Positions 2,285 to 17,056 of a DNA stretch of 32,000 nt are shown piece after piece. A program made the position numbers and the translations under genes. Under the pieces are notes generated by a model. It made no database searches, was not told the DNA's origin, and worked only from the letters and a program-made list of their open reading frames with translations. Origin of the DNA: an uncultured Chloroflexia bacterium (lineage in GTDB: Bacteria > Chloroflexota > Anaerolineae > Anaerolineales > Anaerolineaceae); contig OY969938.1 in assembly GCA_963704755.1 (NCBI GenBank), forward strand, positions 4,380,001 to 4,412,000, in the 5' to 3' direction. Each line of letters begins with the position of its first letter. Position 1 is the first letter of the stretch.

Positions 2285-2300
2285 GAGAGGAGGGAGGAGC

Positions 2301-2335
2301 GGTTAGCGATTAGCTTTTAGCGGTTAGCCGTAGGG
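2301..2335. repeat. Heptad tandem repeat NNTTAGC x4 (plus one degenerate unit); left bracket of the repeat array
   Basis: The units are ggttagc gattagc ttttagc ggttagc cgtaggg with an exact 7-nt period. This is an imperfect reverse complement of 3298-3346. Confidence 0.85.
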
Positions 2336-2394
2336 GGGTGGAGGGCTCGATTACGACATTGGTTAACCACCAACCGCACAATATTTTGAGATCT

Positions 2395-3294
2395 GCCCGT
2401 AACCCACCATCTACAACAGGAGCCAATTTTTGGGCTTTTGTCGAATTGTCGACCGATGCCGCGAAAGCACGAGGCATCGCCCTCACCCCAACCCCTCTCC
2501 CAGAAACGGGAGAGGGGCTTTTTGGCTTGCCTGACAATTTGGGTTATGCCCGGTGGGTTACGGGCAAGAGATTAGCTGGCCAAGCGCGATCATCAAACCC
2601 GGCGTTCTAAATGAGCCCTGCACCCACCATCCGTAAATGGCGCTGATTTTTTGTTTTTTGCCTGGTTGTTGACCAATGCCGCGAAAGCGCGGGGCATCGC
2701 CCTCACCCCAACCCCTCTCCCAGAAACGGGAGAGGGGCTTTTGGCTTGCCTGACAATTTGGGTTATGCCCGGTGGGTTACGGGCAAGAGACTGGCTGGCC
2801 AAGCGCGATCATCATTTCCCGGCGTTTTTAATGAGCCCTACACCCACCATCCGTAAATGGCGCTGATTTTTTGTTTTTTTTGCCTGGTTGTCGACCGATG
2901 CCGTGAAAGCACAGGGCATCGCCCCACCCCAACCCCTCTCCCAGAAACGGGAGAGGGGCTTTTTGTGGGCTGCCTGCGAATTAGCATTATGCCCGGTGGG
3001 TTACGGGCAAGAGACTGGCTGGTCAAGCGTGATCTTCAACCCCGGCGTTCTAAATGAGCCCTGCACCCACCATCCGTAAATGGCGCTGATTTTTTGTTTT
3101 TTGCCTGGTTGTTGACCAATGCCGCGAAAGCGCGGGGCATCGCCCTCACCCCAACCCCTCTCCCGTTTCTGGGAGAGGGGCTTTTTGGCTTGCCTGACAA
3201 TTTGGGTTATGCCCGGTGGGTTACGGGCAAGGTGCCTCCATGCCAAACGAGATCAACATTTCCCGGCGTTCTTTATGAGCCCTACACCCACCCT
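2395..3294. repeat. Tandem array of four ~221-bp non-coding units (plus the first 7-10 nt of a fifth), each with three conserved hairpins
   Basis: The landmark (A/C)ACCCACCAT recurs at 2401, 2621, 2841 and 3064, with a truncated CACCCACC at 3285, giving periods of 220, 220, 223 and 221 nt. Copies 2-4 are near-identical and copy 1 is diverged in its first ~50 nt. Indels between copies break every ORF frame. Confidence 0.95.
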
Positions 3295-3297
3295 ACA

Positions 3298-3346
3298 GCT
3301 AACTGCCAAAAGCTAAAAGCTAACAGCCAACCGCTAACAGCTATAA
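3298..3346. repeat. Heptad tandem repeat GCYAANN x7; right bracket of the repeat array, inverted relative to 2301-2335
   Basis: The units are gctaact gccaaaa gctaaaa gctaaca gccaacc gctaaca gctataa with an exact 7-nt period. Confidence 0.85.
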
Positions 3347-3377
3347 CATTTACAAAATCGGTAATGTAAACCTTAAA

Positions 3378-3406
3378 TTGACTCTCGTATACAGCTTTGC
3401 TATACT
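3378..3406 (+). promoter_or_regulatory. Near-consensus sigma70 promoter P1 (TTGACT-17-TATACT)
   Basis: TTGACT at 3378-3383, a 17-nt spacer containing the GTATAC palindrome, and TATACT at 3401-3406. This leaves a ~160-nt leader before the ATG at 3576. The -35 context ATTGACTCTC is identical to P2 at 4429-4438. Confidence 0.65.
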
Positions 3407-3575
3407 GATGGTGTGTTCCCCGGGTATTGTTTTTTGGTCAAGTGAGTTTTTCCCGTGAGTAACCCGCCGGTGGTGCGATCATGGCCGGGTTGGTTTATTT
3501 GTGGCAGATTAATGTTGCCCGATGAGGCGGTAAGCAGTTCATTCACATTCCATCATATCGGAACAGGAGTGTCCT

Positions 3576-4301
3576 ATGAAATTAAAGCCCCCAACATCTT
3601 TATCTGTCGATTCACTGACCCTGGACGCAGCCGAAATCGAAGGGCTTCTCCAGGGATACCCGTTGGATTTACCTCCCTGGCCGGACGCAACCATCCGCCT
3701 GAGAGACGGCCGTACCATGTACCTGCGCAGCATGCAGGAACAGGACATCCCCACCTTGCTCGGTTTTATGGAAAAGGTCATGAAGGTGGAGAAGGACTTC
3801 TATGATATCGTTGGAGTGCGAGTATACGGGGAGATTTTGGGGGTCTTGCGAAAACGCCTGAAGGATCCTTTTACCATTCTGGGGCTGGTGGATGGAGAGT
3901 TCACCGGGTTTGCTAACGGGCGGTTCTGGAGCCGCGACCTGGGGATCAGCCTGCATACCATGACTTTTGCCCGGCGGGGCCGGGTCGGCTGGGCGATGTA
4001 TTACGCGAAAACCTATTACGCGATGGAAATCTGCAAAGCCAAAGAATGGTGGACCACTTTCGAGAGCTACAATGGCTGGCGGATGGCCGGCCTGGCGATG
4101 GCTCAACCGACCAAACCCTGGCCGGAATACCAGCATGAACTGGGCGGGGCCAAAGTGTATTACATCAGCGCAGACCATTGGAACATCCAGTTGAAGAATT
4201 ACCTGGTCGAATCCATTGGCAGTGATTTGGATTTCAATGTGCCCGACGAAATCCTTAAAGCCAACGCCGTTCTACACGTTCCGGAAAAGCTCGAACTTTA
4301 A
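3576..4301 (+). CDS. Hypothetical protein with weak GNAT (N-acyltransferase)-like features
   Basis: 241-aa ORF preceded by the GGAG RBS (ggaacaggagtgtcctATG). IRLRDGRTMYLRSMQEQDIPTLLGFMEKV resembles a GNAT N-terminal strand and helix, and ARRGRVGWAMY resembles the R/Q-x-x-G-x-G/A acyl-CoA loop. The coding call is solid; the family call is tentative. Confidence 0.5.
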   Translation: MKLKPPTSLSVDSLTLDAAEIEGLLQGYPLDLPPWPDATIRLRDGRTMYLRSMQEQDIPTLLGFMEKVMKVEKDFYDIVGVRVYGEILGVLRKRLKDPFTILGLVDGEFTGFANGRFWSRDLGISLHTMTFARRGRVGWAMYYAKTYYAMEICKAKEWWTTFESYNGWRMAGLAMAQPTKPWPEYQHELGGAKVYYISADHWNIQLKNYLVESIGSDLDFNVPDEILKANAVLHVPEKLEL

Positions 4302-4430
4302 CATCCAACAGCGATCCGTTTGCCAGTAGCGTCATCAGTGAGCAGGGGACCCTGCCTGAAATTGGCCGGATCGTTATGCAGAATGGTTATCGCATCGCCC
4401 TGGGGAATGCCGGGCCGTGTTCCGGGATGA

Positions 4431-4460
4431 TTGACTCTCCTTTTTAAAGTTGCCTATACT
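4431..4460 (+). promoter_or_regulatory. Near-consensus sigma70 promoter P2 (TTGACT-18-TATACT) for the fdrA operon
   Basis: TTGACT at 4431-4436, an 18-nt spacer and TATACT at 4455-4460, followed by an AT-rich ~225-nt leader before the ATG at 4687. Confidence 0.6.
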
Positions 4461-4686
4461 TTAATCGGGTTGTCAAACAACTTTTAATATAACATTCTAG
4501 CCGATAACCATCTGATTATCGTTTTCCCCAGTTTCAAAAACAATTTATCTTAACTACCCATACCTGAGCGTACATTCAGTCTCAATTTGCTTTTAATTCA
4601 AATAAGCAAACTGAATATGTCTGTACAAATAAGCGCAAAGGCAATCTGGTAAGCTCTCACGCTTCTTTTTTCTTCAGGAGTAGATT

Positions 4687-6417
4687 ATGGCGGTAATTAA
4701 GGCGGAAGTTCGATCTGGGGTTTATTACGATTCGGCGATTTTGATGCAATTGCAGCGTTCCCTGGCCGGCCTGGCGGGTGTCCAGGACGCGGGGGTGATC
4801 ATGGGGACCGCGACCAACAAGGAACTGCTGGCGCGGATCGACCTGGTCTCGCCGGAAGTCGTCGCTGCCCGCGAAAACGATCTGGTGATCGTGGTGCGGG
4901 CCGAGGACGAGGAAACTGCGCTGGGGGCCATTGGCCAGGTGGACGCGCTGCTCAGCGCCAGAAAATCGGTCGTCGACCAGGATTACCGGCCGCGCAGCCT
5001 GGAAAGCGCCTGCCAGATGATGCCGGAGGCCAACTGGGTGCTTATTTCAGTGGCCGGCCGCTATGCGGCCGCGGTCGCCCGGGACGCTTTGCGGTTGGGA
5101 AAACACGTGTTCCTGTTCAGCGACAACGTGGGGGTCGAAGACGAAATTTCGCTGAAAACCGAGGCGGCCCGCAAGGGCCTGCTGGTGATGGGCCCAGACT
5201 GCGGTACGGCCATCGTCAATGGCATTGGCCTGGGATTTGCCAACCAGGTGCGTAAGGGGCCGATTGGCGTCGTCGCCGCGGCCGGGACCGGCTTACAGCA
5301 GGTGACCGCCCGGATCGACCAGTTGGGTGGGGGAGTCACTTTTGGGATCGGCACCGGCGGCCGGGACCTGTCCGAAAAAGTGGGCGGGACGACCTTCCTG
5401 CAAGGGCTGGATGTGCTTATTCGGGACGCGGACACGCACGTAATTGTGCTGGTCTCCAAACCGGCGGCAGCGGCGGTGGCGGATGAAGTGCTGGCAGCAG
5501 CCCGGCTGGCGGCCAAGCCGGTGGTCGTGTGCTTTATCGGCCGAACGCCCATCTCACGCAGAGACGATAACCTGTTTTTCGCTTCCGGCCTGGACGATGC
5601 CGCAGCGCTGGCGGTGGAACTGGCCGAACACCCGCCGGTGCTGGAAAAGCCGGTCGAGTTGAACCTGGCACGCTTCGCGGCCGGGCAGCGCTATTTCCGC
5701 GGGCTGTTCTCGGGTGGCACACTGGCTTATGAAGCCCAACACCTGCTGGGCGATTACCTGCCGCGGGTGTACGCCAACGCGCCGATCCATAAAGAAAATA
5801 AACTGGCCGATGCGCTGGTCAGCGTGGAGCACACCATTGTGGACCTGGGCGAGGATGAATTTACCGTGGGTCGCCTGCACCCGATGATGGATAACGAATT
5901 GCGCATCCGCCGGCTGATGGAAGAGGCTGTGGATCCGCAGGTCGCGGTGATCATGCTGGATGTGGTCATCGGCTACGGCTCGCACCCCGACCCGGCCGGC
6001 GAACTAGGCCCGGCGATTGCCGGGGCCAAGGCCCTGGCCGAAGCTGGCGGGCGTTACCTGGAGGTGGTGGCGGTTTGTACCGGCACCGAGGGCGACCCGC
6101 AGAAATTAAGCCGCCAGATCGAGCAGTTGCGCTCGGCCGGCGCCTGGGTGGATACCAGTAATGAAGTGGTGGTACGCTACGCCGGCAAGATTCTGCGGGC
6201 GCTCAATACACCGGCCCGGGCAAAGAATTCGATTGGCCAACCGGTGGATTTAGCGGTCCTGAAGGGGCCGCTCAAGGCAATCAACGTGGGGTTGGAATCC
6301 TTTACCGAAAACCTGCTGGCGCAGGAAACGTCCGCCATTCAGGTGGATTGGCGCCCACCGGCCGGCGGGAATGAAAAACTGAGCGGAATTCTGGAGCGGA
6401 TGAAGAAGCACGCCTGA
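4687..6417 (+). CDS. fdrA: FdrA-family protein (succinyl-CoA-synthetase-alpha-like / NDP-forming acyl-CoA synthetase-like)
   Basis: 576 aa. It is collinear by eye with my recollection of E. coli FdrA from end to end. Shared stretches include the N-terminus ...YYDSAILMQLQRSL...VIMGTATNKELL, then VMGPDCGTAIVNGIGLGFAN, GIGTGGRDLS, GGTLAYEA, VDLGEDEFTVGRLHPMMD and the C-terminal GGNEKLSGILERM. Confidence 0.9.
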   Translation: MAVIKAEVRSGVYYDSAILMQLQRSLAGLAGVQDAGVIMGTATNKELLARIDLVSPEVVAARENDLVIVVRAEDEETALGAIGQVDALLSARKSVVDQDYRPRSLESACQMMPEANWVLISVAGRYAAAVARDALRLGKHVFLFSDNVGVEDEISLKTEAARKGLLVMGPDCGTAIVNGIGLGFANQVRKGPIGVVAAAGTGLQQVTARIDQLGGGVTFGIGTGGRDLSEKVGGTTFLQGLDVLIRDADTHVIVLVSKPAAAAVADEVLAAARLAAKPVVVCFIGRTPISRRDDNLFFASGLDDAAALAVELAEHPPVLEKPVELNLARFAAGQRYFRGLFSGGTLAYEAQHLLGDYLPRVYANAPIHKENKLADALVSVEHTIVDLGEDEFTVGRLHPMMDNELRIRRLMEEAVDPQVAVIMLDVVIGYGSHPDPAGELGPAIAGAKALAEAGGRYLEVVAVCTGTEGDPQKLSRQIEQLRSAGAWVDTSNEVVVRYAGKILRALNTPARAKNSIGQPVDLAVLKGPLKAINVGLESFTENLLAQETSAIQVDWRPPAGGNEKLSGILERMKKHA

Positions 6418-6460
6418 TCGGTGCCGTTCTTTACGGCGAGCATCTCTCAAGAGGAAAAAG

Positions 6461-7702
6461 ATGAATATCGAAGAAGCCAACCAGAAAGTGACCGACGCGT
6501 TTATGGAAGCCCGACCGGTGGTAGTTGGAACGGCCACGGCAATCGACGTGATCCCCGGGCTGCACCAGGATATGCTGCTGCACGCCGGGCCGCCGATCTC
6601 CTGGGCGCGGATGGCCGGCCCGATGAAAGGGGCCATGATTGGGGCCTTGATTTTCGAGGGCCGGGCCAAAGACGAAAAAGTAGCGGCCGGTCTGCTTTCA
6701 GCCGGGAAAATCGAGTTTGCGCCCTGTCACGAGCACGCCTCCGTGGGACCGATGGCCGGGGTGATTTCGCCTTCGATGAAGGTGTATGTGGTGGAAAACC
6801 AGACCCACGGCAACAAGGCTTTTTCGGGGATGAACGAAGGCCGCGGGAAGGTGCTGCGCATGGGCGCCTTCAGCCCGGAAGTGATCGAGCGGATGCACTG
6901 GCTGAACGATGTGCTCAGCCCGACGGTGGATGCTGCCTTACGGGCCTGCGGCGGTGTGGACATCCGCGCCATGTTGGGCAAGGCCCTGCAAATGGGCGAC
7001 GATGGCCACAACCGTCTGGATGCGGCCTCGATCCTGTTTACCGTCCAACTGGCCCCCTACATCAGCAAAACTGCCAAAGATACCGCCACGGCGGCGGAAG
7101 TGCTGCGCTTTATGGGCGAGAACGCTCTGACCATCCTCAACCCGGTCATGGCGGGCTGTAAGACGATGACCGATGCCGGGCACAATGTGGAAGGCAGCAC
7201 GGTAGTGACGGCCATGGCGCGCAACGGCACCGATTTTGGCCTGCGCGTCAGCGGCCTGGGAGAGCGCTGGTTTACCGCCCCGGCGCCGCAGGTCAAGGCG
7301 CTCTACTTCCCCGGTTTCAGCGAAAAAGACGCCAACCCCGATATCGGCGACAGCACCATCACCGAAACGGCCGGGATCGGCGGGTTTGCCATGGCGGCTG
7401 CCCCGGCGATTGTGGCCTTCATCAGCGGCACGGCTCGCGACGCGATCAATGCCACCCTGGATATGTACGAGATCACCTACGCGGAGCACAAGTTTTTCAC
7501 CATCCCTTACCTGGATTTCCGCGGGACGCCAACCGGGGTAGATATCCGCAAAGTAGTCGAGAAAGGCCTGACGCCGCGGGTCAACACCGGGGTCGCCCAT
7601 AAAGACGCCGGAGTCGGCCAGGTCGGGGCCGGTGTGGTCAGTATGCCCATGGCGCCGTTCGAGGATGCGCTGGTCGCATTTGCAGAAAAATACGGCATCT
7701 AA
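6461..7702 (+). CDS. ylbE: DUF1116 protein, YlbE-like partner of FdrA
   Basis: 413 aa. It carries the motifs LLHAGPPISWARMAGPMKGAMIGALIFEG, VGPMAGVISPSMKVYVVEN, TAMARNGTDFGLRVSGLGERWFTAP, NPDIGDSTITETAGIGGFAMAAAP and NTGVAHKDAGVGQVGAG, which parallel E. coli YlbE as I recall it. Confidence 0.88.
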   Translation: MNIEEANQKVTDAFMEARPVVVGTATAIDVIPGLHQDMLLHAGPPISWARMAGPMKGAMIGALIFEGRAKDEKVAAGLLSAGKIEFAPCHEHASVGPMAGVISPSMKVYVVENQTHGNKAFSGMNEGRGKVLRMGAFSPEVIERMHWLNDVLSPTVDAALRACGGVDIRAMLGKALQMGDDGHNRLDAASILFTVQLAPYISKTAKDTATAAEVLRFMGENALTILNPVMAGCKTMTDAGHNVEGSTVVTAMARNGTDFGLRVSGLGERWFTAPAPQVKALYFPGFSEKDANPDIGDSTITETAGIGGFAMAAAPAIVAFISGTARDAINATLDMYEITYAEHKFFTIPYLDFRGTPTGVDIRKVVEKGLTPRVNTGVAHKDAGVGQVGAGVVSMPMAPFEDALVAFAEKYGI

Positions 7703-7730
7703 ACCTTTTCTTCGAGTATCGGAGGGATCG

Positions 7731-9401
7731 ATGGACCGAGAACGTTTTATTCAGATGATGGCGGAGGCGAAACTGTACGACCTGACCCAAGGTTGCAGTA
7801 TTTTCACGCCGCCTTTTCCGGGCGATAAGTCTTTGGAAGTCCATTTCTTCAAGCGTGTGACCGGGGCTTATGGCGGGGGCGCCGGCGCCAACGGCATGAT
7901 CCTGAACTGGTCGAACACGGTCGGCACGCACCTGGTCGGTGAAACCGCCTATCATTCCGGCGGGCGAGCCATCGCCGATATCCCGCTGAAAGAGCTGTGT
8001 GGACCGGGCGTGGTGGTAGATATTTCCGACGAGGTCTCGGATTACTCGCTGTATACGCCCGAAATGATCACCAAAAAAGCCGCGGTGAAAAAGGGTGACA
8101 TCCTGATCATTAACACCGGCTACCACAAATATTCCTGGGACCAGCCGGACGTGCGCAACCCGCATGCCCAGGGCGGGGTGGAATCCAAGGAGTTTGGCTT
8201 CCTGGTACGCCACCCCGGGCCTTCGCCTGAGTTCTACCAGTGGGTGATGGATATGGAGCTGAAACTGGTTGGCGTGGACTGCGGCAGCGCCGAACACCCG
8301 ATGAATACCCCCATCCGCCGGCTGCACGAGGCGGAGTTCAAGAAGGCCGAGGCCAAGCTGGTCCAGGATTACGGCAAGACCTGGGACGAAATGTACCCGC
8401 AGGACTGGTATTACGAGCTGACCCACCTGACCATGCCCAAGAAGCATGTCTTGTTTGTCGAATTGATCGTGGGCGATATCGATGAACTCAAGAACCAGCG
8501 CGCCTGGATCATGGTCATGCCAATCCCCTTCATGGAAGTGGAAACGGCCTGGTCACGGGTAGCAGCACTCCAGCCACCGGATGGTTTGGGCGAGGAGGAA
8601 TTCTTCGAGGAAATGGGTAAAGCCCGCATGTTCGATATGAGCGTGCCGTTCTCGGTCCGCTCGCCGCAGTGGGCCAATTACGAGCCGCTGACGGTGAAAT
8701 ATTTCAAGCGGACCGGCGGGGCCTACTTTGGCATGGCCCGTAACGGCTCGATTTGCAACGCTTCGATCCACCTGGCTACCCATATGGATGGGGAGAAACA
8801 CTTCTATCCGGCCGGCCGGACCATTGGGCAGGTGCCGCTGGAGGAATGGGTGGGGCCGGGTGTGGTGGCCGATATTTCCGATGTGGTCAGTAATTCTAGC
8901 GTGTATACCCCCCAGATGATCGAAAAGATAGTGGATATCCACGAGGGCGATATTTTGATCATCAAGACCGGTTGGTACAAACTGGGCTGGAACAGCCCCG
9001 ATTCCGACGAGTTCCGCTACATGATCAAACACCCCGGCCCATCGCCCGATTTTGCCGATTGGGCGGCTAAATTGAAGCTGAAATGGATCGGTGTGGACTG
9101 CGTGGCGGCCGACCACCCGATGAACACCATCCAGCGCATCTGGCACCCCAAGACCTTCGAGGAAGCCAACGCCAAGCTGATGCGTGACTTCGGCAAAGAT
9201 TGGGACGAGATGTACCCGCTGGACCAGTATTACCAGGACATGCACCTGAATCTGTTCCCCAAGAAGATCGTCCATGCCGAAAACCTGGGGAACCAGTTGG
9301 GGGATGTACCCAGCGGGCGCTACTACATCGGCTGCTTTGTCCAGAAGGCCATGGAAGTCGAATCGATGTGGGGCCGTTTTGTAGCTTTCGAAGAAGGCTA
9401 A
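7731..9401 (+). CDS. Fused tandem cyclase-family (kynurenine-formamidase-like, PF04199-type) protein with two homologous halves
   Basis: The start is moved to ATG 7731, which has the RBS GGAGGG at 7721-7726. The earlier ORF start overlaps ylbE. The two halves are internally homologous: LKELCGPGVVVDISDEVSDYSLYTPEMI...GDILIINTGYHK...HPGPSPEFYQWVMDMELKLVGVDCGSAEHPMN versus LEEWVGPGVVADISDVVSNSSVYTPQMI...GDILIIKTGWYK...HPGPSPDFADWAAKLKLKWIGVDCVAADHPMN. Confidence 0.8.
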   Translation: MDRERFIQMMAEAKLYDLTQGCSIFTPPFPGDKSLEVHFFKRVTGAYGGGAGANGMILNWSNTVGTHLVGETAYHSGGRAIADIPLKELCGPGVVVDISDEVSDYSLYTPEMITKKAAVKKGDILIINTGYHKYSWDQPDVRNPHAQGGVESKEFGFLVRHPGPSPEFYQWVMDMELKLVGVDCGSAEHPMNTPIRRLHEAEFKKAEAKLVQDYGKTWDEMYPQDWYYELTHLTMPKKHVLFVELIVGDIDELKNQRAWIMVMPIPFMEVETAWSRVAALQPPDGLGEEEFFEEMGKARMFDMSVPFSVRSPQWANYEPLTVKYFKRTGGAYFGMARNGSICNASIHLATHMDGEKHFYPAGRTIGQVPLEEWVGPGVVADISDVVSNSSVYTPQMIEKIVDIHEGDILIIKTGWYKLGWNSPDSDEFRYMIKHPGPSPDFADWAAKLKLKWIGVDCVAADHPMNTIQRIWHPKTFEEANAKLMRDFGKDWDEMYPLDQYYQDMHLNLFPKKIVHAENLGNQLGDVPSGRYYIGCFVQKAMEVESMWGRFVAFEEG

Positions 9402-9427
9402 ACGGCGACTTTTTTGGAGGAAAAGCA

Positions 9428-10300
9428 ATGAAGCCAGCTCCATTTGATTATTACGCCCCTACCAGCGTAGCGGAGGCCCTGGAGAACCTGCACAAGTTGG
9501 GCTACGATGGGAAAGTACTGGCTGGAGGCCAAAGCCTGATCCCGGCGATGAACTTTCGCATGGCCCGGCCTGCGGCGCTGGTTGACCTGAACAAAATCGG
9601 CGAACTGGCCTTTATCAAACCGGCCGAGGATGGCGGGGTGGTGATCGGCGCCATGACCCGTGACAGCAAGGTCGAAAAAGACCCGCAGGTGGCGGCCCGG
9701 TTCGGGATCATCCCGGAGGTGATGGGTTACATCGCTCACCCACAGATCCGCAACCGGGGTACTTTTGGAGGCGCCATCGCCCACGCCGACCCGGCCGCGC
9801 AGCTCCCGGCGCTGATGGTGGCGCTGAAAGCCAGGATCCACATCGTCAAAAAGGATTCGTGGCGCTGGGTGTCGATCGACGATTTCTTCCTGGGGCCTTT
9901 CATGACGGCCATCGAGCCGGACGAATTGCTCTACGAGGTGGCCATTCCCGGGCTGTCTCCCCATAGTGGGGCTTCTTACCAGCAAGTCGCCCGCCAGCGC
10001 GGCGGTTACGCCCAGGCGGCCGCGATCAGCGTGGTCAGCCTGGACGGAGGCGGGCGCTGCAAAGAGGTTCGCCTGGTACTGTTCAGCGTGGGCGAAACGC
10101 CGATTCTCTCGGCCATTGCGGCAGAAAGCCTGGAGGGCCAGGCCCCGGACCCGGCCTTGATCGCCGCTGTAGCCGTCAAGGTGGCCAGGCAGGAGGTTGA
10201 TCCGGGCTCCGATCTGCACGGTTCAACAGATTACCGGCGCCACCTTGTTGAAGTATTGGCCCGTCGTTCGTTGAGCCAGGCCTGCGAGCGTGCGCAGTAA
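9428..10300 (+). CDS. Molybdopterin-hydroxylase FAD-binding medium subunit (CoxM/CutM-like)
   Basis: ATG at 9428 after a GGAGGA RBS; the longer ORF start overlaps the preceding gene. The sequence MKPAPFDYYAPTSVAEALENL...AGGQSLIPAMNFRMARP...GTFGGAIAHADPAAQLP is typical of the family. Confidence 0.88.
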   Translation: MKPAPFDYYAPTSVAEALENLHKLGYDGKVLAGGQSLIPAMNFRMARPAALVDLNKIGELAFIKPAEDGGVVIGAMTRDSKVEKDPQVAARFGIIPEVMGYIAHPQIRNRGTFGGAIAHADPAAQLPALMVALKARIHIVKKDSWRWVSIDDFFLGPFMTAIEPDELLYEVAIPGLSPHSGASYQQVARQRGGYAQAAAISVVSLDGGGRCKEVRLVLFSVGETPILSAIAAESLEGQAPDPALIAAVAVKVARQEVDPGSDLHGSTDYRRHLVEVLARRSLSQACERAQ

Positions 10301-10312
10301 GGAGAGAAAGCC

Positions 10313-10792
10313 ATGACACAGAAAATGCGAATCGTTGTCACCGTAAATGGGACCCCTTATGAGCGCGAAGTCGAGCCGCGCCTGCTGTTGAGCGATTTCA
10401 TCCGCCACGACCTGGGCCTGACCGGTACCCACGTGGGCTGCGAGCATGGCCTGTGCGGCGCCTGTACCATCCTGTTCGATGGAGAGCCGGCCCGTTCCTG
10501 CATCATGTTCGCGGTTATGGCCGACGGTCACCAGGTGCAGACGGTCGAATCACTGGGCACACCCGAGGAACTACATCCCATCCAACAGGCCTTTCGAGAA
10601 AAACACGCGTTGCAGTGCGGTTTTTGCACGCCGGGCCTGTTGATGACACTGGTCGATTACCTGGGGCATAACCCCCATCCCAGCGACGAGCAGATCCGCG
10701 AGGCAATCGACGGGAACTTTTGCCGTTGCACCGGTTATGAGAACATTGTCGCAGCGGTCAAGCTGGCGGCAGCCAAATTGGCAGCGGATTAG
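10313..10792 (+). CDS. Molybdopterin-hydroxylase [2Fe-2S] small subunit (CoxS/CutS-like)
   Basis: 159 aa with both cluster motifs: CEHGLCGACT and CGFCTPG...CRCTGY. Confidence 0.92.
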   Translation: MTQKMRIVVTVNGTPYEREVEPRLLLSDFIRHDLGLTGTHVGCEHGLCGACTILFDGEPARSCIMFAVMADGHQVQTVESLGTPEELHPIQQAFREKHALQCGFCTPGLLMTLVDYLGHNPHPSDEQIREAIDGNFCRCTGYENIVAAVKLAAAKLAAD

Positions 10793-10818
10793 CCCGGCAG
10801 AATAGAGGAGGTGCAATC

Positions 10819-13167
10819 GTGACCAACAGAGTATTTCATAAATCCATCTTACGAAACGAAGACCCCCAAATTCTGACCGGCCGGGCCGAGTACCTGGATG
10901 ACGTGGAGCTGCCCAACATGCTCTATGCGGCCTTCAAGCGCAGCGATTACGCCCATGCCAGGATCAAGAGCCTGGAGGTTGGGGAAGCGCGTAAAATCCC
11001 GGGGGTCTATGGTGTGTACACCGCCGAGGACTTTGGCGATTACATCCAGCCGGGACCGCTGCAGGTACCTCCGCCGACTGCCATTGCGGGGTCAATCTTT
11101 ACCACGCGCACGACGATGCCGATCGCGGTGGGCAAGGTGCGCTATTCCGGCGAGCCGGTAGCGATCGTACTGGCCGAAAACCGCTATATCGCTGAAGATG
11201 CGCTGGACGCGATCTATCTGGATGTCGAGCCGCTGGAGGCGGTGATCGACCTGGAGAAGGCACTCGAACCCGGCTCACCGCTGGTGCATGAGGATACCGA
11301 ATCCAACCTGGCGGCCAACGTCAAACAGGAACACGGCAATTACGCCGAGGCGGCTGCCGGGGCTGACCTGATCGTCCGGCGCAAGATTTACGCCGACCGG
11401 CAGGCCGGGGCTGCGCTGGAAAACCGCGGCATCCTGGTGGATTGGAATGAACGATCCGGCCAGATGACCATTTGGGCCGGGACGCAGTCGCCGATCACAC
11501 TGCGCAATGCAACTGCTAGCCGGCTGGGTCTGTTCGAGAACCAGGTACGGGTCATCACGCCCTTCACCGGGGGCGGGTTTGGGCCCAAGATCAATACTTC
11601 TTTGCCGGACGACGTGCTGATCACGTACCTGGCCATGAAAGTAGGCCGGCCGGTCAAATGGCTGGAGGACCGTCGTGAGAACTTCCTGGCAACCACCTCC
11701 GAGCGCGACCAGGTCCATTACGCCGAGCTGGCCTTGACCAAAGAAGGCATTATCCTGGGTATGAAGGACGTGTTCTACCATAATTCAGGCGCCTACAACC
11801 CGTACATGATGACCGTGGCGCTGAACACCCAGACTTATACGGTGAGCAACTACCGGGTGCCAAACTTCTACACCGAAATCAAAATGGTGTTCACTAACGA
11901 AATGATCGTTACCCCCGTGCGCGGGGCCGGCCGGCCGCAGGGAGTGTTCGTGATGGAGCGTATGCTGGACGCAGCCGCGAAGGAACTGGGACTCGACCCG
12001 GCCGAGATCCGCCGGCGCAACCTGCTGCGGCCGGATGAGCTGCCTCTGCGCACCGGCATCATCGGCCAGGACTTTGTCGAGGGCGTGCTGGACAGCGGTG
12101 ATTTTCCCCAGGCGCTCGAAAAAGTGATGGACATGATCGGCTACGAGCGCTTCCGCAAAGAAATCCAGCCCAGGCTGCGGGCCGAAGGCAAACACGTGGG
12201 GTTAGGGATTTGCTGTTTTACCGAGGGAACCGCGGTAGGACCGTACGAAGGCGCCAAAGTGACCGTGGGCTCCAGCGGGAAGGTCAACGTGGCGACCGGG
12301 GTGGCTACCCAGGGCCAGGGGCATTACACCTCCTTTGCCCAGATCGTCGCCGAGCAGTTGGGGGTCGAGGTGCAGGACGTGAATGTCATCACCGGCGATA
12401 CGCACCACTTTGCCTGGGGGGCGGGTACTTTCGCCAGCCGGGGCGCGACCGTGGCGGGCACGGCGATCTACCTGGCCTCGCGGAAGGTCCGCGAAAAGAT
12501 CTTCAAAATGTCCAGCAAAATCCTGGATGCGCCCGAGGAGGAGTTGGAACTGGCGGACGGCGTCATTCGTATAGCCGATATCCCCTCGCAGTTCATCACC
12601 CTGGGCGACCTGGCCAACCGGGCCAACCCGATGCGCGGCACGATCGAGCCGGGAGTAGAGCCTGGGTTGGAAGCCGTGGCTTATTACGGCCCACCCTACG
12701 GCGCCACCGGCGCCGGCTGTATGGCCATGATCCTGGACGTGGATGCCGAGACCATGGCGGTGAAGATCGAGCGCCTGGCGATCGTACACGACTGCGGTAC
12801 GACGATCAACCCGATGATCGTGGAGGGGCAAATCCACGGCGGAATTCAAATGGGGATCGGAAATGCCTTTTTCGAAAAAATATTTTATGACGAAAACGGC
12901 CAGCTCTTGACCGCATCTTTTATGGATTATCTCTTCCCGCAGGCCACCGATATGCCGGCCAGGATCGAGATGGGTCACCTGGAGACACCGACGCCGTTGA
13001 ACCCCCTGGGCATCAAGGGCGTGGGGGAGGCTGGGGCAATCCCCGGTCCGGCAGCGTTCAACCAGGCTTTGGAGGATGCCCTTTACGATACCGGCATCGA
13101 GTTGATGGAAACCAACCTTAATCCCAGCAAAATTTTTGGCTATGTCCAAAAGGCCAGGGGCGGCTGA
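10819..13167 (+). CDS. Molybdopterin-hydroxylase large (Mo-cofactor) subunit, xanthine-dehydrogenase family; not a form-I CO dehydrogenase
   Basis: GTG start after a GAGGAGG RBS, 782 aa. Family motifs are RNEDPQILTGRAEYLDD, GGGFGPK, GQGHYTSFAQIVAEQLG and KGVGEAGAIPGPAA. The active-site loop reads TPVRGAGRPQG, not the VAYRCSFR of genuine CODH. Confidence 0.9.
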   Translation: MTNRVFHKSILRNEDPQILTGRAEYLDDVELPNMLYAAFKRSDYAHARIKSLEVGEARKIPGVYGVYTAEDFGDYIQPGPLQVPPPTAIAGSIFTTRTTMPIAVGKVRYSGEPVAIVLAENRYIAEDALDAIYLDVEPLEAVIDLEKALEPGSPLVHEDTESNLAANVKQEHGNYAEAAAGADLIVRRKIYADRQAGAALENRGILVDWNERSGQMTIWAGTQSPITLRNATASRLGLFENQVRVITPFTGGGFGPKINTSLPDDVLITYLAMKVGRPVKWLEDRRENFLATTSERDQVHYAELALTKEGIILGMKDVFYHNSGAYNPYMMTVALNTQTYTVSNYRVPNFYTEIKMVFTNEMIVTPVRGAGRPQGVFVMERMLDAAAKELGLDPAEIRRRNLLRPDELPLRTGIIGQDFVEGVLDSGDFPQALEKVMDMIGYERFRKEIQPRLRAEGKHVGLGICCFTEGTAVGPYEGAKVTVGSSGKVNVATGVATQGQGHYTSFAQIVAEQLGVEVQDVNVITGDTHHFAWGAGTFASRGATVAGTAIYLASRKVREKIFKMSSKILDAPEEELELADGVIRIADIPSQFITLGDLANRANPMRGTIEPGVEPGLEAVAYYGPPYGATGAGCMAMILDVDAETMAVKIERLAIVHDCGTTINPMIVEGQIHGGIQMGIGNAFFEKIFYDENGQLLTASFMDYLFPQATDMPARIEMGHLETPTPLNPLGIKGVGEAGAIPGPAAFNQALEDALYDTGIELMETNLNPSKIFGYVQKARGG

Positions 13168-13219
13168 CGCCCGGCCGAACCATAACTACCCACCCCTTTT
13201 ACACGGAGGAACCTGAAAA

Positions 13220-13856
13220 ATGAAAATCGAAGGTGAGCATCTGATTTAAAGGTCCGAGGGAAGCGGTATGGGAGATGTTCTACGATCCACAGGTGTTAGC
13301 CAGCGCCATCCCTGGAATGGACAAATTGGATCAATTGTCCGAGAACGAATTCCAGGGGATCATGAACCTGCGTATTGGCCCGGTCTCGGGACGGTTCGAG
13401 GGCAAATTAACCCTGGCGGACGTGCTGCCGCCCCAAAGCCTGACCCTGTCCGTGGATGGTCATGGGGCGCCCGGTTTTGCCAGAGGGGTTGGCAAAGTGC
13501 ATTTCAGTGAGACTGATAGTGGCGAGACCTTGATGAAATACGACGGCGACGTAAATATCGGCGGAGCGCTGGCCAGCGTCGGCCAGCGAATGATCGATTT
13601 GGTCAGTAAAAGTATGATCCGCCAGGCATTCGAAATTCTGGATAAGAATTTGGAAGCCCGCCTGACTGCTGAGGAGAGCGGCAGCCAGGTCGTCAACTTC
13701 GCCCCACCCAGCCAGTCTGAAGTTGCGGCTGGTATCGCCAAAGATGTGGTGGGGGATATAACCAAGATAGCCGAGGTCCGAATGCTGATCTACGTGGTTT
13801 CTCTGGTGGCCATTCTGCTGGCAGTGATGTTCATTGTAAAAAGTTGCAGTGGCTGA
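13220..13856 (+). CDS. coxG: CoxG-like SRPBCC protein with a C-terminal membrane anchor; the N-terminus is disrupted by a 1-nt frame change at 13244-13250
   Basis: ORF 13275-13856 reads MFYDPQVLASAIPGMD...GRFEGKL...GGALASVGQRMID, which is CoxG-like. ATG 13220, with RBS GGAGGA, encodes MKIEGEHLI and then a TAA stop. The next frame continues FKGPREAVWEMFYDP, so the canonical CoxG N-terminus is split across two frames. Confidence 0.75.
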
Positions 13857-14077
13857 TTGGCAGATGAGATCCATCCGTAGCGCTCTGGACACGGGAGGAA
13901 GGAGGTAACAGGAGGAGAGAAAATTTTTCCAATCTTCCCTAATGGCGACCGTTTTTTCACCGGTTTGAATTCATCGCTTTATTTTGCTGCCAAAGGAGTT
14001 TGGTGAGATTCCGGGAGCCAGAAACAACCCCAAAATTTCATACAATTTCATATCTTCTGCTAGGGAGGAAGACTTCA

Positions 14078-15505
14078 ATGGCTACCGCAGTTCAGAAAGC
14101 CAAAGTGCTGGGCTATCTGCCTAATGATGCCCCTCCATTTGGTCAAATGGTGTTACTTGGCCTGCAGCACGTGCTCACCATGTTTCCGGCGACGGTGCTG
14201 TGCGCCATTTTGATGAAATTCCCGGTCAGTACGGTGCTGACGGTCACCGGCTTTGGCACAATTGTCTCTCTGCTCGGCTCCAAGCTGGCCATGGGAAAAT
14301 TTATCCCGCTGTACTACGGCTCCAGTTTCAGCTATATCGCCGCTGTAGCGGGCGTTATGGCTAACCTGGGCGTGGCCAGTGATACGCCCGTAGCGCCCCC
14401 CGAAGTCATTTCGATTGTGACCGCCGGGTTCATTGCAACCGGGACGATCAACATCCTGGTGGGACTGATCATCCGCCTGTCAGGTGGGAAAGACGCGATC
14501 GATAAAGTGCTGCCGCCGATCATCACCGGCCCGGTGGCCTGTACCATCGGGGTAGGGCTGGGCTATTCGGCCCTTTCGATGGCTGCGGGTACTTGCTGCG
14601 GTGTGGATCCGGTGGCAACACCCAATGTGACCCTGACCTGGTGGGCACTCGCATTCGTCACCTTGCTGGCAGCCTTCATCCTGTCGGTCTACCTGCAAGG
14701 TAAAGGCTTCATCGGAATGCTGCCCATCCTGCTGGCCACAATCGTCGGGTATATCTTCGCGGCCGCGATTGGCATGGTCAACTGGGCGGCTTTCGGGCAG
14801 CAGGCGTTCTTGCGTGCGCCGCAGCTCACTTTTCCAACGTTCAACAGCGTCTGGACGGTGACGGTCATATTCAGCGTGGGCATTATGGCCATCGCTACCA
14901 TTCCTGAATCGACCGCACACCTGTACCAGATCAGCCTGTATGTGGATCACCTGGCCGAGGAGCAGGGCCGGGAAAAATATCACCTGGACCGTTTCATCGG
15001 GCTCAACCTGATGCTGGATGGCCTGGATGACCTGATCAACGGCCTCTTCGGCTCGACCGCCGGTACCAATTACGGTGAGAACAACTCGTTGATGGTGATC
15101 TCACGCAACTACTCCGGCCCATCCCTGCTGACCGCCGGTGTGATTGCCATGATGCTGGGGTTCTTTGGCCCACTGGAGGAGGCGGTCAACTCGATTCCCA
15201 CGGCAGTCATTGGCGGGCTGATGATTTACCTGTTCGGGGTCATCGGTATGCAAGGTATCGCCTTGATGATTGCCGAAAAGGTCAATTTGTACGACCCCAA
15301 ACAGTTGGCCATCGGCGCCTCGATCTTGATTATCGGGATTGGCGGAAACATTGGCTTCTCGGGCGGGTTTATCCCGGTGCCACTTCTGCAGGGCATCTTC
15401 CCGTCCGGATGGCCGGCCATTGCCACCGGCGCCGTGGTGGGTATTCTGCTCAATCTGATCACGGTTTTCTGGAAGCCACCTGTGGTGCGGGAAGAGGTTG
15501 GCTGA
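14078..15505 (+). CDS. Nucleobase:cation symporter-2 (NCS2, uracil/xanthine permease family) transporter
   Basis: ATG at 14078 after a GGGAGGAAG RBS. The sequence FGQMVLLGLQHVLTMFPATVL plus about 12 or more hydrophobic segments and ...GENNSLMVISRNYS... are typical of NCS2. Confidence 0.85.
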   Translation: MATAVQKAKVLGYLPNDAPPFGQMVLLGLQHVLTMFPATVLCAILMKFPVSTVLTVTGFGTIVSLLGSKLAMGKFIPLYYGSSFSYIAAVAGVMANLGVASDTPVAPPEVISIVTAGFIATGTINILVGLIIRLSGGKDAIDKVLPPIITGPVACTIGVGLGYSALSMAAGTCCGVDPVATPNVTLTWWALAFVTLLAAFILSVYLQGKGFIGMLPILLATIVGYIFAAAIGMVNWAAFGQQAFLRAPQLTFPTFNSVWTVTVIFSVGIMAIATIPESTAHLYQISLYVDHLAEEQGREKYHLDRFIGLNLMLDGLDDLINGLFGSTAGTNYGENNSLMVISRNYSGPSLLTAGVIAMMLGFFGPLEEAVNSIPTAVIGGLMIYLFGVIGMQGIALMIAEKVNLYDPKQLAIGASILIIGIGGNIGFSGGFIPVPLLQGIFPSGWPAIATGAVVGILLNLITVFWKPPVVREEVG

Positions 15506-15590
15506 CGTGTTTGGGCCTGAGAAAGCTTGATTTTCTGATTTATTCTCCCGTCCCAACCTCATGGATGAAATCTGGAATGTTCTTATTCAA

Positions 15591-15636
15591 GGCTCCCGAT
15601 GACCGAGGAGAAGTCGGGAGCCTGACCATCCTTTTG
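15591..15636 (+). terminator. Hairpin, possible terminator of the catabolic operon
   Basis: GGCTCCCGA (15591-15599) pairs with TCGGGAGCC (15614-15622) across a 14-nt loop. The T-run (CCTTTTG) only begins 10 nt after the stem, so it is non-canonical. Confidence 0.4.
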
Positions 15637-15655
15637 TCGATTTAAGGCAGGCAAA

Positions 15656-16521
15656 ATGATTCTCTTACCGGCGCAGCCGGGAAAACCGGGAAGGCAGTTC
15701 TTCAGGCCCTGCATGAAAAAAAGCAAGTTGTGCGGGCGCTCGTCCATCGCCCGGACCAGATCGAGCCCGTGCAGATGCTCGGCGCGCAGGAGGTTTTCTG
15801 GGGCGACCTGAGGGAATCACAGACTGCTCAGAAGGCGCTGGCAGATTGTTCGGCGATTTACCACATCTGTTCGAATATGAACCCGGATGAGCTGGTGATC
15901 GGCCGGATGGTTATCCAGGCCGCAGTCAACGCCGGCGTAAAGAAGTTTGTTTACCATTCGGTGCTGCATCCGCAGGTAGAGGATATGCCGCACCACTGGC
16001 ATAAAATGCAGGTCGAACAGTCTTTGTTCAGCTCGGGATTGACCTATGTGATCTTACAGCCGTCCGCGTACATGCAAAACATACAAGGCTATTGGAAAGA
16101 GATGGTCACGAAGGGACGGTATACCGTGCCGTACCAGGTCACTTCACGCCAGAGCCTGGTGGATTTGCAGGATGTGGCCCAGGCGGCGACCCTGGCGCTG
16201 ACCGGTGCGGACCACGACTTTGCGACCTATGAATTATGCGGCCGGCAGGCATTCTCCGCCCAGGAGATTGCCGGACTGGCTTCGGCGCATCTCGGCCGGG
16301 CGGTAACGGCTTACAGCCTGGGCCGGTCCAATTGGGAGGCAGAGGCGCGCCAGGCAGGTATGCCTGAATATACGCTTCAAACGTTGTTAAAGATGTTTGT
16401 TTACTACGAAGCCCATGATTTTGTGGGCAACGCAAACGTGCTGGAATGGCTGCTGGGTCGCCAGGCGGCTACCCTGGAGGATTACCTGGATCGATTGACC
16501 GCTACCGGATTTTCGGGGTGA
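15656..16521 (+). CDS. NmrA-like NAD(P)-binding protein; the Rossmann N-terminus is out of frame with the only start codon (apparent 1-nt deletion near 15664-15667)
   Basis: ORF 15730-16521 is NmrA/SDR-a-like. The same frame read upstream gives ...LTGAAGKTGKAVLQALHEKKQVV (a GxxGxxG loop) but has no start codon. ATG 15656 (MILL..) lies one base out of frame. Confidence 0.7.
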
Positions 16522-16530
16522 GGATGAGGA

Positions 16531-17031
16531 ATGTATAAAGAAAAAAGCCAGCTCTACAATTACACCCGTGAAGCCCTACCCACCCTTTTTCATTCACAGA
16601 CCGAAGGATTCATGCAATATGCGGAGAAGGACGGGACGAAATTCCTTAAATTCTGGTGGGACCACCTGGGTGAGCGCCTGGCCGATGAACTTTGCTCTCC
16701 TTTTATTGGGGTTCAAGTCGAAATCCGGGAGCTGCCCGAGCGTAAATCGCGAATGGTGATGGTCAAGCTGCCGCCGGTGACGGCCTATGAAGATTTTCAT
16801 TATATGGCGTTCATCGAGCTGCCTAAAAAGCGCTATCCGATGATGATGCGGATCCCGAACACGCGGATTGTCGCCCTGGCGCATGTGCCATTGGAAAAGA
16901 GCGACAGCGGGACATTATTATATGAAATCACACCACGAGGCAGGGTCCTGCCGGTAGCGAAAGGGCCCAAACCGGGCAAAGAAGCCTTTTATAAAGCCGT
17001 TTTGAGCTATATCTGGAAAGGAAAGAACTAA
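16531..17031 (+). CDS. Hypothetical protein (166 aa), no family recognised
   Basis: The ORF starts 10 nt after the preceding gene with a GAGGATGAGG RBS region. Composition is coding-like and there is no competing ORF. Confidence 0.6.
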   Translation: MYKEKSQLYNYTREALPTLFHSQTEGFMQYAEKDGTKFLKFWWDHLGERLADELCSPFIGVQVEIRELPERKSRMVMVKLPPVTAYEDFHYMAFIELPKKRYPMMMRIPNTRIVALAHVPLEKSDSGTLLYEITPRGRVLPVAKGPKPGKEAFYKAVLSYIWKGKN

Positions 17032-17056
17032 CCGAGAATTCCGATTTTTTCGCTGA

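Follow-up and report, generated by a model that had tools for sequence, protein, structure and literature searches.

An AllF/AllG gene pair without AllH in a conserved Anaerolineae cluster with a molybdenum hydroxylase and a fused double cyclase

Introduction

What do two subunits of a ureide-cleaving carbamoyltransferase do in a genome neighborhood that lacks the third? The question is raised by a 32-kb stretch of an uncultured Chloroflexia bacterium (assembly GCA_963704755.1, contig OY969938.1, positions 4,380,001 to 4,412,000), the whole of which, 32,000 nucleotides (nt), is called the window below. In it, allF (fdrA) and allG (ylbE) stand in a tight gene cluster together with genes for a fused double cyclase-family amidohydrolase, a three-subunit molybdenum (Mo) hydroxylase (coxMSL), a CoxG-like protein, an NCS2 nucleobase permease, and GNAT-like and NmrA-like proteins. 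Judged by gene content and order, the window appears to carry an AllH-less variant of an undescribed, very widespread cluster type that is built from known enzyme families.

In Escherichia coli, oxamic transcarbamylase is made up of AllF, AllG and AllH and forms carbamoyl phosphate and oxamate from oxalurate and phosphate. None of the three genes can be missing, and a single operon holds them together with the carbamate kinase gene allK (PMC11326118). Two contexts of AllFGH have been published, the enterobacterial allantoin regulon (PMC11326118, PMC12535856) and the allFGHK clusters of nitrifiers, which adjoin biuret/triuret hydrolase genes (PMC12625717). AllH and AllK are present in both. Full-text searching of the literature found no description of the cluster analyzed here. 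It was reportedly no earlier than 2024 that AllFGH was recognized as the long-sought oxamic transcarbamylase, and then solely in the allantoin setting of E. coli.

AllF and AllG without AllH and AllK

Both proteins match their E. coli counterparts over the full length. AllF is 40% identical to FdrA from end to end (576 aa) and scores 542 bits against the NCBIfam FdrA model (cutoff, 433); Pfam places a Ligase_CoA domain and a weak CoA_binding domain in it. AllG is 48% identical to YlbE and matches Pfam PF06545 with an E value of 1.4e-91. No ATP-grasp domain was found by Pfam in either protein.

AllH (PF11392/DUF2877) was sought in the window with Pfam, with a custom AllH profile hidden Markov model (HMM) and by tblastn with E. 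coli AllH, and carbamate kinase was sought with Pfam and by tblastn with E. coli AllK. Neither was found, which bears out an earlier, sequence-only reading of this DNA that had reported the pair without either partner nearby. That reading had left one escape, namely a YlbF homologue and a carbamate kinase just outside the window. The escape is closed by the extent of the window, which reaches 3.5 kb upstream and 16 kb downstream of the cluster, and by 25 related loci without AllH beside allF. Directly upstream of allF, the same profile HMM detected AllH in 42 of the 45 covered loci of the fuller cluster described below, as opposed to 0 of 25 loci of the window type. An AllH-like open reading frame (ORF) lies elsewhere in the locus in only 1 of 83 window-type loci (L119). 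By tblastn, no homologues of AllA, AllC, AllD, AllE or AllK were found in 166 loci (2.16 Mb), and an AllB-like gene was found only in L010, L011 and L022.

Recurrence in Anaerolineae

A metagenome scan with the double cyclase yielded 329 relatives, and the best 80 loci (75 to 85% identity) were inspected, each about 10 kb to either side. Gene calling relied on a simple ORF heuristic, taxon labels were taken over from the depositors, and short contigs account for most gene absences in these loci. Anaerolinea thermophila and one metagenome-assembled genome carry the nine genes of the window in unchanged order, with unrelated flanks. Anaerolinea thermophila UNI-1 and Bellilinea caldifistulae are carriers held in culture. 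Among the best 80 loci, AllG is encoded in 61, CoxM in 60, the NmrA-like protein in 41 or 42 (often between the cyclase and coxM), CoxG in 29 to 32, and the NCS2 permease in 11. What had been described as an unusual catabolic island is no one-off but, by this neighborhood survey, a lineage-wide Anaerolineae operon.

Two architectures recur. The first (B1), that of the window, is GNAT - allF - allG - double cyclase - (DinB) - coxMSL - coxG - NCS2 - NmrA. The second (B2) is CoA-transferase III - allF - CN-hydrolase - allG - double cyclase - NmrA - coxMSL - coxG; genes of a Bmp/PnrA-type ABC transporter adjoin it, and parts of such a transporter occur in 16 to 22 loci. The gene directly upstream of allF encodes the GNAT-like protein in 7 loci and the CoA-transferase in 9, never both. 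A CN-hydrolase gene is present in 11 of 13 loci with the CoA-transferase and in 0 of 10 with the GNAT gene; it stands between allF and allG in 25 loci, and its product is nearest to formamidase, omega-amidase and beta-ureidopropionase-like proteins. The family III CoA-transferase best matches succinate-glutarate and hydroxymethylglutarate CoA-transferases (422 bits in one comparison, 391 in another), followed by oxalate enzymes. Four loci (L110, L119, L142 and L147) carry the double cyclase with an XdhA/HCR-like Mo enzyme that is 27 to 30% identical to CoxM and CoxL of the window.

A fuller cluster in other phyla

The closest single-domain relative of the double cyclase (P0259), 50% identical to its C-terminal half, has 541 relatives among GTDB species representatives. 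In the best 80 of their loci (L008-L087) we found, as the dominant order, GNAT-like - thiolase-like - DUF35 - AllH - AllF - AllG - cyclase - Mo-hydroxylase M-S-L, often with overlapping genes. Twenty-eight loci are complete (for example, L016 3903-14562), and most others are cut by contig ends. These 80 loci bear at least 15 phylum-level labels, among them Ignavibacteriota, Verrucomicrobiota, Bacteroidota, Zixibacteria, Elusimicrobiota, Eisenbacteria, Lentisphaerae, KSB1, Marinimicrobia, Acidobacteriota and Gemmatimonadota. The proteins are 66 to 95% identical across phyla, which is unusually high, with the exception of AllH (25 to 36%).

The window shares with this cluster the order GNAT-like...AllF-AllG-cyclase-MSL, at identities of 35% (GNAT), 43% (AllF), 53% (AllG) and 52% (cyclase). 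Unlike the window, the fuller cluster has genes for the thiolase-like protein, DUF35 and AllH between GNAT and AllF, a single-domain cyclase and no CoxG, and a permease (NCS1, where the window has NCS2) lies nearby only in L010 and L011. A 385-nt noncoding spacer takes the place of the thiolase, DUF35 and AllH genes in the window version, and tblastn found no remnants of the three in it. The thiolase-like protein and its DUF35 partner are related to BbsAB. The Mo subunit is XdhA/4-hydroxybenzoyl-CoA-reductase-like, with 4-hydroxybenzoyl-CoA reductase as its best PDB match, and is 29% identical to the window CoxL. In L010 and L011 (L011 25-6117 and 15697-20822) the cluster is flanked by genes for the dihydropyrimidine dehydrogenase PreT/PreA, a dihydropyrimidinase-like amidohydrolase, an aldehyde dehydrogenase and the NCS1 permease, which place it among genes of reductive pyrimidine degradation; a DHDPS-family gene occurs there as well. 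In most cases, neither a transporter nor a regulator is linked to the fuller cluster.

The arrangement in the window can hardly be due to chance: its order is kept in 83 loci of the same type, and the fuller form is found in 80 loci of other phyla. Because the core is kept although the Mo subunits belong to different subfamilies, the linkage of AllF, AllG, cyclase and Mo hydroxylase appears to be functional rather than accidental or historical. The window cluster is a reduced derivative or a sibling of the widespread AllH-containing cluster.

A double cyclase with one predicted active site

The N- and C-terminal halves of the double cyclase align with each other. The metal motif of the cyclase/kynurenine-formamidase family (PF04199) and its downstream His/Glu are found in the C-terminal half and not in the N-terminal one. 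In the former, the signature HxxTHxDxxxH is kept (HLATHMDGEKH, then HAE), whereas the latter reads TxxTHxVxxxA (TVGTHLVGETA) and FVE, with three ligands and a later His lost. The same losses are seen in P0257, the only other full-length representative at 50% clustering and the sole other full-length double-cyclase fusion in a library of 1.84 billion representatives; single-domain relatives are many. The PDB relatives are kynurenine formamidases and metal-dependent hydrolases. The N-terminal half is probably noncatalytic, and the motifs suggest that the protein is a fused pseudo-dimer whose active site is single.

The Mo hydroxylase, CoxG, the permease and the NmrA-like protein

The three Cox subunits have the features of xanthine-oxidase-family hydroxylases, with FAD-, 2x[2Fe-2S]- and molybdenum cofactor (MoCo)-binding subunits and a catalytic Glu. 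This residue lies in GVGEAG and aligns with GMGES of quinoline 2-oxidoreductase (Qor). The active-site loop of CoxL, PVRGAGRPQG, aligns with AYRGVGFTAG of Qor and with AYRCSFRVTE of the CO dehydrogenase of O. carboxidovorans and contains no Cys. The closest PDB entries are mycobacterial CoxL (8uem) and Qor (1t3q). The enzyme thus appears to be a Mo hydroxylase. Identity as a CO dehydrogenase was rejected, since the Cu-binding Cys is absent and the NCBIfam scores fall below the cutoffs (809 versus 950 and 523 versus 991), in line with what had been concluded from the loop alone. Identity as a xanthine dehydrogenase was rejected on the active-site loop and the scores (152 bits versus 488).

The CoxG-like protein ends in MLIYVVSLVAILLAVMFIV, a hydrophobic helix, which suggests that it is tethered to the membrane. 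Its reading frame runs MKIEGEHLI* and continues as FKGPRE... in the next frame; A. thermophila has an intact MQLEGEHVFKGPRE. The frame of the NmrA-like gene is likewise interrupted: translation from the ATG at 15656 yields MILL, after which the GAAGKTG motif is read in a different frame (probably TT versus TTT).

Against NCBIfam, the permease scored 197 bits with the uracil permease model (cutoff, 477), 138 with RutG and 123 with PbuX, all under the cutoffs. It is 34% identical to E. coli UraA and keeps the motif TxYGENxxxMxIxR. It also has an ExxxH motif, which BLAST placed differently; in UraA, Glu/His/Glu residues are reported to bind uracil in the paper on its structure.

The first gene of the cluster

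The 241-aa product of the first gene gave no match in Pfam or NCBIfam, even at an E value of 10. An AlphaFold2 model made from 36 homologues (pLDDT, 82; pTM, 0.80) matched GNAT structures in the PDB by Foldseek (best E value, 1.6e-6; probability, 1.00), with 104 matches at E values of ≤1e-3, and the top 50 listed matches were all GNAT-type acetyltransferases. The earlier label GNAT-like therefore agrees with the predicted fold. The sequence RRGRVG at the beta4-alpha3 junction is near, though not identical to, the canonical acyl-CoA pyrophosphate motif Q/RxxGxG/A. The family comprises 1,053 homologues, nearly all of 240 to 241 aa and 62 to 80% identical; the few that are named are called N-acetyltransferase and come from Anaerolineae, and the window protein shares a 90%-identity cluster with its Bellilinea counterparts. 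In other phyla, the gene that opens the fuller cluster belongs to the same family (30 to 37% identity) and is translationally coupled there to the thiolase gene.

The neighborhood of this gene and allF had been said to echo the domain pairing of Pat-type acyltransferases. The likeness holds for the GNAT part: the only match of the family profile among PDB sequences, a weak one (E value, 0.08), is the GNAT domain of Streptomyces lividans PatA, which is also a good fold match to the model. It does not hold for the pairing, as the GNAT gene and allF are separate, each with its own promoter, and AllF lacks an ATP-grasp domain; the feature that would place them among the Pat-type acetyltransferases is absent.

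The possibility that this protein is a divergent AllH, which the earlier reading had marked for a check, was rejected by profile-profile comparison. The hhalign probability was 0.3% with E. coli AllH and 0.1% with a profile of 47 AllH sequences; the product of 3576-4301 and the DUF2877 models thus show no relation. Nor is it a substitute for AllH, because both occur together in the 28 complete ten-gene loci of the fuller cluster.

A possible pathway and its rivals

From the gene content, gene order, conservation, and fold and motif assignments given above, we infer a scheme, its substrate and every reaction included, that we put forward tentatively. The operon may let its host take up a nucleobase-like N-heterocycle, in all likelihood a pyrimidine such as uracil or thymine, and degrade it anaerobically by a water-dependent route; we hold this to be quite possible, though short of probable. 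The UraA-like NCS2 permease would import the base. The CoxMSL hydroxylase, held at the membrane by CoxG, would then hydroxylate a ring carbon next to a nitrogen, converting uracil to barbiturate. The metal-binding C-terminal half of the double cyclase would hydrolyze a ring amide and leave an open-chain N-acylurea, which in the case of barbiturate would be ureidomalonate (3-oxo-3-ureidopropanoate), one CH2 longer than oxalurate. AllF and AllG would move the carbamoyl group to phosphate, giving carbamoyl phosphate and the monoamide of a dicarboxylate, here malonamate, an analogue of oxamate. In the sister clusters the CN-hydrolase could hydrolyze the amide and the family III CoA-transferase could activate the acid; in the window version, a presumably CoA-using GNAT-like protein stands at that position. 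The carbamoyl phosphate might feed a carbamate kinase or biosynthesis encoded elsewhere. The "energy-conserving cleavage" of the sequence-only reading finds no local support, given that neither AllF nor AllG has an ATP-grasp domain and that none of the 166 loci has an AllK-like carbamate kinase.

A nucleobase-type substrate, as proposed earlier, is supported by context (the UraA-like permease, Bmp/PnrA ABC transporters, PreT/PreA, the dihydropyrimidinase-like protein and NCS1), and ureide or amide chemistry is supported by the CN-hydrolase between allF and allG. The transporters, an N-acylurea-splitting pair, an amidase wedged into it, a dicarboxylate CoA-transferase, a metal amidohydrolase and a water-dependent hydroxylase, taken together, agree with cyclic-ureide catabolism, of which oxidative pyrimidine breakdown would be the simplest case. 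The conversion of a pyrimidine to barbiturate and on to 3-oxo-3-ureidopropanoate is established chemistry of the oxidative pyrimidine route (PMC3758960).

Several points weigh against a pyrimidine substrate and against the scheme as a whole. No barbiturase/AtzD-family protein was found by Pfam among the cluster proteins, and we know of no cyclase-family enzyme that acts on barbiturate. Bmp-type transporters also carry purine nucleosides. The permease scores far below the uracil permease cutoff (197 versus 477). The flanks with pyrimidine genes occur in one lineage only (L010 and L011, 87 to 97% identical), in addition to a lone dihydropyrimidinase-like gene in L022, and the two Mo-hydroxylase subfamilies could differ in substrate. 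The scheme would work without the NmrA-like, GNAT-like, thiolase-like and DUF35 proteins. The E. coli enzyme requires AllH (PMC11326118), and the lack of a carbamate kinase in the 166 loci leaves carbamoyl phosphate without a linked consumer.

A bolder version of the pyrimidine scheme seems to us doubtful. It holds that the core is an unrecognized, widespread anaerobic pathway in which pyrimidines are oxidized with oxygen from water and the ureido group leaves as ATP-yielding carbamoyl phosphate rather than urea, and that the Anaerolineae carbamoyltransferase is a two-subunit, AllH-free enzyme. The degenerate cyclase domain might replace AllH structurally in it, because AllH goes with a single cyclase (42 of 45 loci with coverage) and the double cyclase goes without AllH (82 of 83).

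Alternatively, the Mo enzyme might hydroxylate a purine or a ureide of the imidazole type, and the cyclase might open an oxidized five-membered ring of the parabanate or hydantoin type to oxalurate, so that AllF and AllG would be true oxamate carbamoyltransferase subunits that release oxamate. The full-length identity of AllF (40%) and AllG (48%) to the E. coli oxalurate enzyme agrees with this, as do the scores of the sister CoA-transferase against oxalate CoA-transferases (283 and 264 to 272 bits; YfdE), which would fit a path from oxamate via oxalate to oxalyl-CoA. The best-known cargo of Bmp/PnrA transporters is purine nucleosides, and A. thermophila has genes for adenosine deaminase and SurE some 9 kb upstream. 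The best match of that CoA-transferase, however, is of the succinate-glutarate/hydroxymethylglutarate type (422 and 391 bits) and not Frc. Further, AllA, AllC, AllD and AllE are missing from the 166 loci, the permease is nearer to UraA than to xanthine permeases, and the Mo subunit, a member of the CoxL/Qor branch, is only distantly related to known xanthine dehydrogenases (152 bits versus 488). On balance, we regard this reading as unlikely.

Still less likely, in our view, is a route through CoA thioesters. AllF and AllG would here carry out CoA-dependent acyl activation or transfer, the Mo enzyme would act on a heteroaromatic acyl-CoA, the cyclase would open the ring, and the thiolase/DUF35 pair, the GNAT-like protein or the CoA-transferase would process the CoA esters. 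There are precedents: FdrA used to be annotated as an acyl-CoA synthetase, and 4-hydroxybenzoyl-CoA reductase and furoyl-CoA dehydrogenase use acyl-CoA. The CoA-binding and CoA-ligase domains of AllF would fit, and the GNAT-like protein and the CoA-transferase also use CoA; the fuller cluster adds the thiolase-like protein with its BbsAB-related DUF35 partner and a Mo subunit whose best PDB match is 4-hydroxybenzoyl-CoA reductase. However, the window version has no thiolase, DUF35 or CoA-transferase, and neither AllF nor AllG has an ATP-grasp domain. The transporters speak for nucleobases or nucleosides and not for aromatic acids. Purified E. coli AllFGH, assayed in the absence of CoA, is a carbamoyltransferase (PMC11326118).

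An ordinary allantoin/oxalurate module with its AllH and carbamate kinase genes just beyond the stretch is highly improbable despite the orthologue-level matches of AllF and AllG and the poor conservation of AllH (25 to 36%), by which it could be overlooked, since neither gene lies within the 3.5 kb upstream or the 16 kb downstream, the HMM that finds AllH in 42 of 45 fuller clusters finds it in 0 of 25 beside a window-type allF, and there are no allantoin genes nearby. AllH and a carbamate kinase may still be encoded farther away, since the loci were inspected over about 10 kb to either side.

Relation to known systems

With the AllFGH-AllK system of E. coli (PMC11326118, PMC9843812), the window shares the adjacency and order of allF and allG, an anaerobic host and, if read correctly, ureide catabolism. 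It differs in lacking AllH, AllK and the allantoin genes and in joining the pair to a Mo hydroxylase, a cyclase, CoxG, NCS2, GNAT-like and NmrA-like proteins, and its substrate need not be oxalurate. The nitrifier clusters likewise use AllF and AllG in scavenging ureide nitrogen, sometimes with bmpA-nupABC nucleoside-type transporters, but they keep AllH and AllK and have neither a Mo hydroxylase nor a cyclase (PMC12625717). The logic proposed for the pyrimidine scheme (hydroxylate, open the ring, split the ureide) is that of the oxidative pyrimidine route of Rhodococcus and other aerobes, with uracil/thymine dehydrogenase, barbiturase and ureidomalonase (PMC3758960). Unlike that route, the window would use a cyclase/KynB-family ring opener and AllF/AllG phosphorolysis to carbamoyl phosphate instead of hydrolysis to urea, in strictly anaerobic hosts. 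As for the Mo enzyme, Qor, the nicotine-pathway dehydrogenases and "form II" CoxL have the same M-S-L subunits, AYRGxG-type Cys-less loop and catalytic Glu (closest structures, 8uem and 1t3q), whereas the window differs wholly from them in genomic context and also encodes a putatively membrane-anchored CoxG. The enzymes of the oxidative pyrimidine pathway are said to have been described by Soong et al. in 2001 and 2002.

Two AllFGH subunits are thus a fixed part of a different, undescribed cluster in hundreds of species and at least 15 phyla, mostly of uncultured anaerobes, and the Anaerolineae, an abundant lineage, run the module without AllH. How strict anaerobes in sediments, digesters and soils recycle the nitrogen and carbon of nucleobases is poorly known. 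If the pyrimidine scheme is true, water-dependent hydroxylation ending in carbamoyl phosphate would be a new catabolic, energy-conserving pathway; it would give functions to several families of "domain of unknown function" proteins and supply gene candidates for the oxidative pyrimidine route. The two cultured carriers, A. thermophila and B. caldifistulae, make the proposal directly testable.

Gene layout

ORFs were listed and scanned with Pfam and NCBIfam over the whole window, and starts were refined by conserved ribosome-binding sites (RBS), start positions and homologue lengths (Table 1). The starts of the double cyclase, coxM and permease genes moved to the tabulated positions from 7632, 9200 and 14000, respectively; that of the permease is set by an RBS and a MAT start that are conserved in 10 loci. 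Nine genes, their order and their common strand agree with the sequence-only reading. Successive intergenic gaps from the GNAT gene to the permease gene are 385, 43, 28, 26, 12, 26, 52 and 221 nt; the last seven were counted as matching the gaps of 12 to 44 nt and of 221 nt reported before. The tight spacing and one conserved promoter support the view that these genes form a coherent, probably cotranscribed catabolic unit. We extended the cluster to position 16521, because the NmrA-like gene belongs to it in 41 of 83 related loci.

Table 1. Features of the cluster and its surroundings (positions within the window)
Feature	Positions	Strand	Basis or remarks
IclR-HTH/PNPOx-like fusion, candidate operon regulator	1081-2223	-	Pfam HTH_IclR + PNPOx_N
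Promoter-like site of GNAT gene	3378-3406	+	TTGACT-N17-TATACT, TG before -10; no palindrome after it
GNAT-fold protein, unnamed family, 241 aa	3576-4301	+	AlphaFold2 model/Foldseek
Promoter-like site of allF operon	4431-4460	+	TTGACT-N18-TATACT
Palindrome GGTTGTCAAACAACT just past allF -10, candidate repressor operator	4468-4482	+	Position kept in relatives
allF (fdrA), 576 aa	4687-6417	+	NCBIfam FdrA; Pfam Ligase_CoA
allG (ylbE/DUF1116), 413 aa	6461-7702	+	Pfam PF06545
Fused double cyclase-family (PF04199) amidohydrolase, 556 aa	7731-9401	+	Two PF04199 stretches
coxM, Mo-hydroxylase FAD subunit	9428-10300	+	Pfam FAD_binding_5 + CO_deh_flav_C
coxS, Mo-hydroxylase 2x[2Fe-2S] subunit	10313-10792	+	Pfam Fer2 + Fer2_2
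coxL, Mo-hydroxylase molybdopterin subunit (CoxL/Qor branch), GTG start	10819-13167	+	Pfam Ald_Xan_dh_C, MoCoBD_1, MoCoBD_2
coxG-like, C-terminal membrane helix, frame broken after codon 9	13220-13856	+	Pfam COXG from profile position 15
NCS2 nucleobase:cation symporter, UraA-like	14078-15505	+	Pfam Xan_ur_permease
NmrA-like NAD(P)-binding protein, frame broken after codon 4	15656-16521	+	Pfam NmrA

Frames are broken in three genes of the window, those for CoxG (13220-13275), the NmrA-like protein (15656-15670) and a GDP-mannose-dehydratase-like protein (25088-26315), the last of which is split into ORFs of 128 and 313 aa. Because the homologues are intact, the breaks suggest indel errors in the assembly rather than pseudogenes.

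Promoters and a candidate regulator

The sites upstream of the GNAT gene and of allF share the hexamers TTGACT and TATACT, in keeping with the earlier statement that the GNAT gene is under its own matching promoter. The promoter scan returned 3 sites as opposed to 1.8 expected by chance, which is weak evidence taken alone. The allF promoter, TTGAC...TGCTATACT, however, is aligned and kept in 9 of 11 related loci; the allF leader is about 225 nt long. At the same place after this promoter, the palindrome GGTTGTCAAACAAC(C/T) is found in about 7 of the 11 loci. The window contains a single copy, and a match at 3 mismatches is expected by chance 0.84 times; the palindrome is a candidate operator because its position is conserved, not because it occurs. 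Promoter and palindrome are all that the alignment of the 11 allF leaders revealed. Rfam gave no match to a riboswitch or other known RNA at the gathering level anywhere in the window except for a tRNA, and none at an E value of ≤1 over 3300-4720.

The 221-nt gap before the permease gene contains only the conserved RBS and a purine-rich motif (AAAGGAGGAAAGGAGG-like). The motif lies at 13890-13930, about 150 to 190 nt before the gene, and is aligned in eight other loci (L003, L088, L089, L091, L113, L124, L148 and L159). It might serve as the RBS of a short leader ORF or else have a regulatory role. Nothing above chance level was found among terminators and promoters in 13100-17600.

Divergently upstream of the cluster (negative strand, 310-2223) lie genes for an ABC ATPase and for the IclR-PNPOx fusion. 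The fusion gene is found upstream in the closest relatives (L001, and L088, L089, L091 and L159 at 53 to 54% identity) and is absent from more distant loci; its product is a candidate regulator of the operon, though the association is weak. In relatives such as L001 (5823-9531), it stands beside an ABC transporter with an NMT1/THI5-like binding protein, divergent from the cluster. The NMT1/THI5-like family is tied to uptake of the pyrimidine moiety hydroxymethylpyrimidine (HMP).

Other features of the window

Between the IclR-type gene and the GNAT gene lies a tandem repeat (2290-3340) of about 4.5 copies of a unit of about 220 nt. Each unit contains a perfect GC-rich hairpin, CCCCTCTCCC-AGAAAC-GGGAGAGGGG, beside a T-rich sequence; the fourth copy has the hairpin in the opposite orientation. 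Altogether 4 such hairpins are present in the window (0 expected), and the 167 fetched loci contain none.

Downstream of the cluster, small ORFs follow at 16531-17031 (166 aa, no family, 9 nt after nmrA), 17131-17472 (113 aa) and 20118-20426 (102 aa). Four to seven close relatives (L088, L089, L124, L148 and L159 among them) share this order; in the window a sortase segment splits off the third ORF. At the corresponding place, relatives have an ORF of about 102 aa of the ThiS/MoaD family; the 102-aa ORF of the window has no Pfam match. The tRNA gene, at 20492-20563, is the only gathering-level Rfam match in the window (73.9 bits).

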